Assembly: GCF_058153355.1 (NCBI RefSeq)
Contig: NZ_CM177019.1
Length of the DNA stretch: 64,000 nt
Direction: 5' to 3' (one strand)
A program made the position numbers and the translations under genes. The notes below the pieces were generated by a model, which saw only the letters and a list, made by a program, of their open reading frames with translations, searched no databases and was not told the DNA's origin. Positions 26,108 through 28,955 of the stretch are shown here, one piece after another (positions within the stretch are counted from its first letter, which is position 1; every line of letters starts with the position of its first letter).

Positions 26108-27215
26108 CGCAGGAACTTATAAGCTTGAGAGTTACCGTTCTACGATGAGGACCGAATCCTTATATAAAAACATAGGTAACTCTCATGCTTCATATCCGCA
26201 GTCCCGCCATCAAACTTTAAGCCGATTCGCTCAATCTGGCGGATGATGGTGCTATGGATACACTGATAAACCACAAGTGTAATGCCACTCAGCTTAAGAA
26301 TCACGCAACCAGTGCTCCTGGCCAGGGTTACTTGTTCTTTCCCACTCCCGGTTAGCAGTGGTCAGCGATCAACTGCGTAAGCCGGGCGTATTTATCCCAA
26401 AGCGTGGAGTAATATCAGGTCTACGCTAAAAAACTCAATTTATTCGGTTATCATGCACGCAAAGGGGGCTTGTGGCGAGTATAAAAATAAGTCAGACCCA
26501 AAAACTACGTGGAGCTTTAAACACGGTTCGTATAATTTATTAGCAGCGATTTATTTCTACCCTTCTTTAATCAGTCATCATGATTAAATATTTTTTATCA
26601 CAAGATTATCGCTTCTCTAACATTTTATTTTTTATTTATTATCAATTGATAAGAAAAAATTGTTAGTACGTTTTTGCAAAAAATTAAAAGTGTTGGAATA
26701 CACTTAAACAAATGAACAAAAACCAAACAAACTGAGATTTGCAATCAGAAAAAATTATTCAAGAGAACATCTCTAATTTATTGGTAGCGTCCATGAACGA
26801 TGATTTCCTCACAACCAAAAAGTAAAGAAAATCTTATGATAAGATATATTTGTAAATTAGTATTATTAACGTCAAAGATCTTTTCTTTTCTGCACCCTTA
26901 CTTTGCAACGCATAAAAAACAAATAAAATCAATAATATATGCAGAAAAAGTTATTTTACGTAAAAATAACATTAAATAAATCAAGACTATTGAACATCAC
27001 TAAAACATTAGACGTAATACACATTCACCCCCGCTCCTTGACTCAGGGTTTTAATATTTTTTGTTTCACATCATTGTAGAAAAAATCGCGCATTAAAAAT
27101 GAGTTGTAGAAAAACCGCACAATAAATATTTCATATTTTATCTATTGCGTAGAACTACTATTCAAAAAATCTTATTAATGAGATAATGAAATTACATCGA
27201 TAACGTTCTGATTGC

Positions 27216-27248
27216 AGGCACACTTATCTGGGTGTGCCTCTTTTTTTT
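27216..27248 (+). terminator. Intrinsic-terminator-like hairpin plus T-run about 20 bp upstream of the recombinase start codon
   Basis: aggcacac-ttatctgg-gtgtgcct followed by c and eight T (27241-27248); plus-strand orientation, ending 20 nt before the ATG at 27269. Confidence 0.5.
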
Positions 27249-27268
27249 ACAACTGTACACGGTGGCGT

Positions 27269-27889
27269 ATGACGAGAAAATATCTCACACAGGATGAAGT
27301 CTACAGGCTGATGGATGCAGCCCAGAGCATGTCCTTTCCTGAAAGAAATCGCTGTCTAATTATGATGGCTTTCATTCACGGTTTTAGGGCCAGTGAACTT
27401 CTTGATTTACATTTATCCGATATTGATGCATCAGGAAAACAACTTAATATTCGGCGTATTAAAAATGGTTTCTCGACAACACATCCTCTTCTTCCTGATG
27501 AATATAATTTGATCAAGTTGTGGCTTAAGCAGAGGAAGTTAATTGAAAATGGAGTTGAAGGAGACAGGCTTTTTCTCTCCCGGAAACGCCGCCCTATCAG
27601 CAGACAACATTTTTTTTCGATCATTCGTGAGGCAGGAAGACGTGCAGGATTAGCTGTAAAAGCACATCCTCATATGTTACGTCATGCCTGTGGATTTGCT
27701 CTGGCTGACAATGGTGTCGATACCCGACTACTTCAGGATTATCTGGGTCATCGAAATATTCAGCATACTGTCAGATACACAGCCAGTAATGCTGCTCGAT
27801 TTAAAGGGGTGTGGAAAAAAAGCCTCGTTAAAACAGTACCTTCTGATTCAAAATGTCAGATTCCTACGTTTGCCTCAATTCTTCCATAA
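27269..27889 (+). CDS. ipuA: FimB/FimE-family tyrosine site-specific recombinase (IpuA-like)
   Basis: 206 aa from MTRKYLT; aligns along its length with FimE as I recall it (CLIMMAFIHGFRASELLDLH, HPHMLRHACGFALA, catalytic Tyr region GHRNIQHTVRYTASNA). The last 15 codons lie inside the adjacent inverted-repeat switch. Confidence 0.8.
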   Translation: MTRKYLTQDEVYRLMDAAQSMSFPERNRCLIMMAFIHGFRASELLDLHLSDIDASGKQLNIRRIKNGFSTTHPLLPDEYNLIKLWLKQRKLIENGVEGDRLFLSRKRRPISRQHFFSIIREAGRRAGLAVKAHPHMLRHACGFALADNGVDTRLLQDYLGHRNIQHTVRYTASNAARFKGVWKKSLVKTVPSDSKCQIPTFASILP

Positions 27890-28121
27890 AAAAACAGCCC
27901 ATTCAATTAAATAAAACACATAACATGTTGATATTTCTCGCTAAAGTAAAATAACCCCATGATTTGAAATGATTAACCATAAAGGTCATACCAGTGGTTA
28001 ACTTTCACCCACTCTGTTAAATAACACAAAATTAAAAACAATAAAAGTAATAAAAATTAGATTTATATTCCAAGAAAATTAAATATTCAGGTAATTAAAC
28101 CAAACCTGACATTTTGAATCA
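27844..28121. promoter_or_regulatory. Invertible DNA switch (ipuS-like) bounded by 16-bp perfect inverted repeats
   Basis: tgattcaaaatgtcag at 27844-27859 and its exact reverse complement ctgacattttgaatca at 28106-28121, enclosing about 246 bp of AT-rich DNA between a fim-type recombinase gene and a LuxR-type regulator gene. Confidence 0.7.
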
Positions 28122-28160
28122 AAATGTCAGGTTTTGTAGCAATGGCGTGGACGAGTCTGA

Positions 28161-28955
28161 ATGAAGAAGCCTCTGGTTATTATCAGTGCCTGTCAGTTCA
28201 CCAGGCTGGCACTGGAGTCTCTCATCCCAACGGACAGGTATCTCGTGCGGGTGTACAGCAACGTCACTACAGAGGTTGAATTCGTTTTAAAGACCTCCTG
28301 TGGCTACCTGTTAGCTGATATCCCTTCGCTTCCTTCAGGGGAGTTGGTTCTTCTGGCTTGTCTTGTCCGCTTGCGGAGTGATGCCGGGCAATGGCAGGTC
28401 TGCCTGACCGGTGACTCCAACTGGTTCGATAATGCTCCTGTTGCAAGTCTGTACTACGGCTTCCCACGCATAAGCACCCTGCTGACAGCGAGTCGTTATC
28501 AGAATCAAATTATCCGCTGGTTACTACGTCCTTTGCCCGGCGATATGAGCGATTTCTGGCTCCTGACTGCACGGGAGTTGAGCGTGCTTAAGATTCTGAT
28601 GCAGGGCATGAGTTTCAGTGAGATTGCCCGTTATGAACAACGCAGTTCAAAGACCCTGCATGCGATTGCCACACGGGCATTAATGAAACTTGGACTGGGA
28701 ACTCTGAGCGATTTCAGGCTGCTCTATACGGGATGCGGTGACAGCAGAGTGAAACGGAATATACGGCTACATGCAAGATATGTCGGACAACATTCCGCTC
28801 ATCGACTCACTCAGTATGTGCAGAACATGGTATCCGGAATTCTTTATCCAGAGAAAGTTGCCGTTGGTGAATCAATAAATTCTGACGCCATATCCGGAAA
28901 AGTACTTTCCGGACTAAGAAAAAATATGCCTAAAAAAAGACCAGGTTTGTTATGA
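28161..28955 (+). CDS. ipuR: LuxR-family transcriptional regulator (IpuR-like)
   Basis: 264 aa with C-terminal LuxR HTH (LTARELSVLKILMQGMSFSEIARYEQRSSKTLHAIATRALMKLGL); immediately downstream of the switch. Confidence 0.7.
   Translation: MKKPLVIISACQFTRLALESLIPTDRYLVRVYSNVTTEVEFVLKTSCGYLLADIPSLPSGELVLLACLVRLRSDAGQWQVCLTGDSNWFDNAPVASLYYGFPRISTLLTASRYQNQIIRWLLRPLPGDMSDFWLLTARELSVLKILMQGMSFSEIARYEQRSSKTLHAIATRALMKLGLGTLSDFRLLYTGCGDSRVKRNIRLHARYVGQHSAHRLTQYVQNMVSGILYPEKVAVGESINSDAISGKVLSGLRKNMPKKRPGLL

Follow-up and report, generated by a model that had tools for sequence, protein, structure and literature searches.

How is a DNA invertase gene transcribed when a signal to stop transcription lies directly in front of its start codon? 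This question is raised by ipbA (the same gene as fimX and hbiF), a recombinase gene of Escherichia coli whose ATG occupies positions 27269-27271 (+ strand) of the window, that is, the whole 64-kb stretch of contig NZ_CM177019.1 analysed here. The gene order in the E. coli locus runs from betT/betIBA through a 1.16-kb AT-rich, gene-free gap to ipbA, the hyxS invertible region, hyxR, hyxA and hyxB, the last being the autotransporter gene of the same locus. The original prediction took the gene for a phase-variation recombinase, and this holds: the product scores 243 bits against NCBIfam NF007370 (tyrosine-type DNA invertase; cutoff 221), matches PF00589 with E = 4e-48 and has RefSeq orthologues that carry the names IpbA, FimX or HbiF, matches that place it in the FimB/FimE family of tyrosine DNA invertases. 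Its start codon is not in doubt, given that the NF007370 alignment begins at residue 3 and that the RefSeq orthologues use the same ATG. FimX/IpbA inverts hyxS, acts as a recombinase on fimS in the OFF-to-ON direction and, in E. coli pathogens of extraintestinal sites, can switch on type 1 fimbriae (PMC8777976, PMC6083910). The answer favoured here, with a probability of about 0.5, is that an intrinsic terminator in the conserved 5' leader of ipbA acts as an attenuator that would cap expression of the recombinase.

The hairpin at 27216-27239 (+ strand) reads AGGCACACTT/ATCT/GGGTGTGCCT in the DNA and AGGCACACUU/AUCU/GGGUGUGCCU in the RNA, and consists of a 10-pair stem, with eight Watson-Crick pairs (five of them G-C) and two G.U pairs, closed by a 4-nt loop. 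A single C (27240) and eight T (27241-27248) follow as the U-tract (27240-27248, + strand), and between the end of the T-run and the ATG there is a spacer of exactly 20 nt (27249-27268, + strand), composed of ACAACTGTACAC, the Shine-Dalgarno-like GGTGG (27261-27265) and CGT. The predicted arrangement, a hairpin and T8 run (27216-27248) ending 20 nt before the ATG with GGTGG between, is therefore borne out by the sequence, and a general pattern scan lists the same site independently. Folded alone, the hairpin reaches -14.2 kcal/mol, compared with -4.8 +/- 2.0 kcal/mol for shuffled sequences (z = -4.7), and none of 200 shuffles folds as well; the fold of its 96-nt context is not unusual (z = -0.66), and the signal is that of the hairpin itself. 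A stringent terminator rule (no fewer than seven pairs in the stem, four or more G-C pairs, and T at seven or more of eight positions), applied to both strands of the whole window, returned three distinct sites, this hairpin included, against a mean of 0.3 in 100 dinucleotide shuffles. A chance origin of the hairpin is excluded by these shuffle statistics (0 of 200 folds; 3 sites against 0.3). On the opposite strand no T-run follows the stem, which makes the site unidirectional. Between betA and ipbA it is the only strong terminator-like site on its strand of the window, where a weak 5-pair site lies at 27036-27048, and the type strain ATCC 11775 has no other terminator-like site on the ipbA strand in that interval; each genome holds a single copy. 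Judged by its sequence, the hairpin with its T-run has every feature of a strong intrinsic (Rho-independent) terminator.

Where transcription of ipbA could begin is limited by this arrangement. A position-weight scan found no usable promoter between the T-run and the Shine-Dalgarno sequence that exceeds the 96.9th percentile of window positions; the best sigma-70 candidate downstream of the T-run is the hexamer TACAAC at 27248, which lies at that percentile and carries C at the critical last position. The claim that no room remains for a conventional promoter downstream of the terminator is thus upheld and, given that the stretch from the T-run to the Shine-Dalgarno sequence offers no credible sigma-70 promoter, the options put forward with it (read-through, attenuation, or a short transcript ending at the hairpin) remain live. 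Within the conserved block, TGaGATAAT (27179-27187, + strand), an extended -10 element, is the best candidate for a promoter; it is at the 99.92th percentile of window positions and invariant in 11 aligned strains, and from it we infer a transcript start at about 27194. The gap is rich in other promoter-like hexamers, such as GTGGAG-16-TATAAT at 26509 and TTTGCA-16-TAAAAT at 26902, and strains of the B2 type have a further upstream candidate, TTAATA-16-TATAGT, corresponding to about 27051-27078 of the window. The other candidates in the gap all lie upstream of the terminator as well and, as this holds for all plausible promoters, each ipbA transcript would have to cross the terminator.

The hairpin is present in every E. 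coli record that carries the locus (1,890 of 1,890). The ipbA locus itself occurs in 1,914 of 5,426 complete E. coli genomes, most of them only about 89-90% identical to the window over 2.1 kb, a divergence that lends the comparison some contrast. Strains positive for ipbA include CFT073, UTI89, Nissle 1917 and ATCC 25922. A 44-nt query across the hairpin, taken from the common allele (GGCATAC; the window allele, GGCACAC, is one base different), is 100% identical in 1,637 of the 1,890 records, and the other 253 differ at one or two positions, with none below 95% identity. Among the 11 aligned strains, two C-to-T changes in the 5' arm lie opposite G, so that the pair is kept as U.G, and one change falls in the loop. 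The T-run varies between strains from six to nine T and is never shorter than six, while the 20-nt spacer is almost invariant. In an alignment of four divergent E. coli lineages, about 55% of columns are variable in 26743-27061, compared with 6% in 27152-27268, which covers the hairpin and its flanks, and 7% in the ipbA coding sequence. The conserved block begins at about 27062-27092 and, taken as 27062-27268 (+ strand), forms a putative leader and regulatory region of roughly 200 bp that holds the hairpin and is conserved like coding sequence. In metagenomes, 10 copies of the E. coli type carry the same hairpin, and five further matches were unrelated and due to chance; beyond E. coli, a genome scan yielded no more than one other Escherichia sp. 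and one Salmonella orthologue, the latter without the leader.

Taken as an attenuator, the terminator would halt most polymerases at about 27246-27248, and what they had made by then would be freed as a short leader RNA. With a start near 27194, directed by TGaGATAAT, this predicted RNA would be about 55 nt long (27194-27248, + strand) and would comprise a 22-nt single-stranded 5' part, the hairpin and a U-tail; use of the B2-type candidate TTAATA-16-TATAGT would give a longer RNA, of about 165 nt. Only the read-through fraction would carry the GGTGG ribosome-binding site and the coding sequence, and ipbA is thus probably read only by polymerases that run through the stop, which would keep recombinase levels low. 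The same terminator would also shield ipbA against transcription from the side of the bet operon.

Nevertheless, several observations weigh against an attenuator. The proposed promoter is recognised by its likeness to the consensus, a likeness often met in AT-rich DNA such as this, and TGaGATAAT is not among the top eight candidates of the gap when these are scored under the local background composition. A leader terminator of this strength would leave very little ipbA mRNA, yet FimX is known to be active. No competing antiterminator structure was found in the leader, where forcing the 3' arm of the terminator to remain unpaired costs 10-12 kcal/mol. In the 11 aligned strains one of the three stem substitutions, a G-to-A change in NC101, breaks the top pair of the stem, and no compensatory double changes were seen; the informative sequences all come from E. 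coli or Escherichia sp., so that the comparison has low power. Finally, the hairpin is absent upstream of the nearest non-Escherichia orthologue, that of Salmonella enterica diarizonae (71% amino acid identity), whose upstream region is unrelated.

The idea that the hairpin is a trait shared by fimB/fimE-like genes was considered and rejected. A stable hairpin and T-run within 150 nt upstream was seen at only three of 101 such genes, drawn from 79 loci in other species; all three sites lie farther from the start codon than in ipbA, and one of them (locus L046) simply follows an upstream open reading frame (ORF). Given this rarity and the lack of the hairpin at the S. enterica diarizonae orthologue, comparison of the sequences indicates that the hairpin is specific to Escherichia ipbA and not a family trait. 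Strong sites of this kind lie in Photorhabdus khanii (L057 ~2900-2930; -18.0 kcal/mol), 63 nt upstream of a fimB/fimE-like gene and with no same-strand upstream ORF ending nearby, and in a metagenome-assembled genome (L083 ~2340-2370; -14.9 kcal/mol), 88 nt upstream of such a gene. They may be independent cases of the same arrangement.

A 5-codon mini-ORF upstream of the hairpin had been proposed as a control element. This mini-ORF, atgaaattacatcgataa, lies at 27186-27203 (+ strand), 2 nt from the coordinates first given for it (27188-27205), and encodes MKLHR in the window and MRLHR in most lineages. It is probably not translated: nothing in front of it would serve as a Shine-Dalgarno sequence (there is only GAG, at 3 nt from its ATG), and 12 nt separate its stop codon from the stem. 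The ATG of the mini-ORF shares bases with the best -10 hexamer, which would place the mini-ORF upstream of the predicted transcript start. A role in control is therefore not supported, as there is also no antiterminator to compete with the terminator, and the mini-ORF does not look like a translated leader peptide to which the terminator could be coupled. The sole competing helix, which the 5' arm could form before the 3' arm is made, reaches -5.2 kcal/mol. Since no antiterminator was found, regulated attenuation is without structural support and, with neither an antiterminator nor a leader peptide, attenuation would either be constitutive or be relieved by a factor acting in trans, as proposed for the isrC terminator before flu/agn43.

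Other explanations of the same hairpin have to be weighed against an attenuator. Given that no other strong terminator-like site lies on this strand between betA and ipbA and that the gap holds many promoter-like hexamers, the hairpin could serve as an insulator only, stopping betIBA read-through and spurious starts in the AT-rich and probably H-NS-bound gap, while ipbA is transcribed from a weak promoter of its own. Such a promoter would possibly overlap the hairpin and T-run (for example, with -10 TACAAC at 27248-27253, -35 TTATCT and a leader of about 10 nt) and would provide the expression that a functional recombinase requires. However, this is unlikely for several reasons: the overlapping promoter is unremarkable in its percentile and in its C at the last -10 position, its -35 matches at three of six positions, the start would fall at or inside the Shine-Dalgarno sequence, and an insulator would not account for the strong conservation over the 60-150 bp ahead of the hairpin. 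Another reading is that the hairpin is a relic or neutral passenger, either the terminator of a lost gene or a chance structure kept because the island is young, with no present role for ipbA. Its confinement to Escherichia ipbA loci, its absence from the Salmonella orthologue and the scarcity of comparable sites at related recombinase genes elsewhere (3 of 101, one of them following an upstream gene) are consistent with such an origin. This reading is nevertheless quite improbable, as the hairpin is kept in all 1,890 records while the adjoining 300 bp upstream have diverged at about half of their columns, there is no coding remnant upstream, and chance is excluded by the shuffle tests.

A further possibility is that the block contains an independent gene for a trans-acting small RNA (sRNA), in which case an RNA of 55 nt or longer would be made from its own promoter and base-pair with other mRNAs, its position before ipbA being incidental or secondary. 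The RNA that the predicted promoter would produce is shaped like an enterobacterial base-pairing sRNA, its 5' part being single-stranded and its terminator hairpin followed by six to nine U; the block is conserved like a gene, and Rfam IS102/IsrC is matched weakly (25.8 bits, E = 0.014-0.12). This match remains below threshold, and no Rfam family is reached at threshold. Among the RefSeq records listed, no non-coding RNA is annotated under the block; the sRNA lists for UTI89 and enterohaemorrhagic E. coli (EHEC) contain nothing at the ipbA leader locus, and in the text supplements of a study that cross-linked Hfq in EHEC nothing is entered for the matching Sakai coordinates, a weak negative. 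In addition, when the 22-nt 5' part was compared with 69 translation-initiation regions of the window, those of hyxR, hyxA, hyxB and ipbA included, no complementarity stood out (best z = -1.8), and no genome has a second copy. An independent sRNA gene is therefore rather unlikely. It is likewise doubtful that the terminator is a regulated checkpoint at which some factor or condition lifts termination, as proposed for isrC-flu, and gives bursts of IpbA/FimX that reset hyxS and fimS, while an abundant RNA of ~55 nt acts in trans as an sRNA and ties control of the recombinase to other genes.

The attenuator that is favoured here would have one close parallel in E. coli K-12, isrC (Rfam IS102, RF00124), whose terminator ends 27 nt before the ATG of flu/agn43 with a Shine-Dalgarno sequence between, flu being a phase-variable surface-factor gene. 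The expression of flu has been described as controlled by IsrC antitermination (PMC5389530, citing Wallecha et al. 2014). The short terminated RNA of isrC is detectable as an sRNA. The two leaders are not homologous, however: the hairpin region scores 25.8 bits against a gathering score of 46 and pairwise alignment gives no real similarity, so that the weak IS102/IsrC match, which covers mainly the terminator part, reflects the shape of a terminator and not common descent. They also differ in length, IsrC having 195 nt and the predicted ipbA leader possibly only about 55 nt. The Wallecha 2014 study is said to report that an upstream in-frame start codon contributes to agn43 expression; in contrast, the sole in-frame upstream start-like codon of ipbA, TTG at 27212, is without a Shine-Dalgarno sequence and is TGG in some strains.

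The ipbA leader would share with the trp, his and pyrBI attenuators and with riboswitch expression platforms an intrinsic terminator between the promoter, here a predicted one, and the first codon of the regulated gene. Those systems need a competing antiterminator helix together with a leader peptide or a ligand-binding domain, whereas the ipbA leader has no competitor within 10 kcal/mol and its mini-ORF has no leader-peptide features. Small RNAs derived from 5' untranslated regions (5' UTRs) by premature termination are known from 3'-end mapping in E. coli. The predicted ipbA leader would be like these in releasing a short RNA at a 5' UTR terminator, with trans action optional, and for it no local target was found. 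The fim recombinases, to whose invertase family IpbA belongs, are controlled through a long upstream regulatory region of fimB and through orientation-dependent Rho termination at the 3' end of fimE. The likeness would be that a DNA switch is biased through the amount of invertase, which is adjusted by transcription or at the RNA level; the difference is that for fimE the control is Rho-dependent and exerted at the 3' end. No hairpin and T-run lies within 150 nt upstream of the E. coli fim pair (locus L079).

Intrinsic terminators placed in 5' leaders are a well-known class of mechanisms, to which ipbA would add a new member, by analogy the second E. coli arrangement of the isrC-flu type. Reviews and primary papers on FimX/IpbA (PMC8777976, PMC6083910) do not mention an ipbA promoter, leader or terminator, give no mapped transcript ends for the gene and leave aside how its expression is set; this search did not cover the original reports of Bateman & Seed 2012 and Bryan et al. 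2006, so that an earlier mention of the terminator may exist. The arrangement is of interest for phase variation because invertase dosage sets switching rates. Given that small changes in invertase dosage alter switching frequencies, a strong terminator crossed by every ipbA transcript would be the main limiter of dosage and a natural point for environmental input, and the differences in T-run length between strains (six to nine T) could tune read-through.

The remaining observations concern the DNA on either side of the leader. The 1.16 kb upstream contain no gene, pseudogene remnant or protein-family match to which the terminator could belong, and the gap has no ORF longer than 60 amino acids (aa), its short ORFs being without a Pfam or NCBIfam match. 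That the hairpin is the terminator of a decayed upstream gene was considered and rejected, as tblastx and blastn searches of 26108-27268 against the 79 related recombinase loci were also empty. A minus-strand ORF of 54 aa at 26140-26304 has no family match. It lies in the first 340 bp after betA (26108-26445), which are unlike most E. coli: identity is 81-83% over the first 258 nt and the alignment is then lost until 26445. Given this divergence and loss of alignment after betA, the left junction of the ipbA-hyx island varies between lineages. The left part of the gap (26445-26740) is moderately conserved, and the hypervariable stretch 26743-27061 sits between it and the conserved leader block.

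Within that block, an imperfect direct repeat of about 30 bp at 27074-27130, formed by TTGTAGAAAAAATCGCGCATTAAAAAT and TTGTAGAAAAACCGCACAATAAATAT (22 of 27 positions match, with one gap), could from its sequence be a regulator binding site; Tandem Repeats Finder, run on 26900-27300, called no repeat, this one included. In FDAARGOS_1303 (locus L089), an IS3-family element lies about 140 bp upstream of an intact ipbA, at a point equivalent to window position ~27128. The insertion removes everything upstream of about 27128 and leaves the hairpin and the extended -10 candidate in place. In RefSeq records the block is free of annotation except for two pseudogene calls, those of Sakai ECs_0355 and of FDAARGOS_943. 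These ipbA pseudogene calls, in O157:H7 Sakai (L084, NC_002695.2 371781-372221) and in FDAARGOS_943 (L088), start at the in-frame TTG at window position 27212. Since this is upstream of the hairpin, the terminator is annotated as coding sequence in both. On the minus strand of Sakai NC_002695.2 the hairpin occupies 372194-372217, and a terminated transcript would be expected to end near 372185.

An 11-nt perfect inverted repeat is formed by 26740-26750 and 27206-27216, the right copy ending exactly at the base of the hairpin, and the 31-nt sequence at 26720-26750 resembles the left repeat of hyxS. The segment between the two copies (26751-27205) was considered as a second invertible (promoter) segment and rejected, as 1,889 genomes gave no inverted junction and other lineages have not kept the left site.

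At its 3' end, the ipbA gene of the window (27269-27889, + strand) is frameshifted. An A-run at 27815-27821 has seven A in the window, compared with eight in four other lineages, so that the last residues are replaced and the ORF extends to 27889, giving a product of 206 aa instead of the 187 aa of the RefSeq orthologues. The catalytic region lies upstream of this frameshift, whose origin could be either true slippage in the homopolymer or an error of sequencing. The extended ORF enters the left inverted repeat of hyxS, and this repeat overlaps the 3' end of ipbA. The inverted repeats of hyxS (27830-27862 and 28103-28135) are 33 nt long and 82% complementary, share the core TGATTCAAAATGTCAG and are 240 nt apart. 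Two genomes, FCI1 (88% coverage in two pieces) and Escherichia sp. L004 (an alignment break at 27859-28108), appear to carry hyxS in the other orientation. The right repeat (28099-28137) is itself palindromic and folds into a hairpin of -22.2 kcal/mol followed by UUUUGU, 24 nt before the hyxR ATG at 28161. It is also flagged as terminator-like on the minus strand, and is the second hairpin in this locus to stand directly before a start codon.

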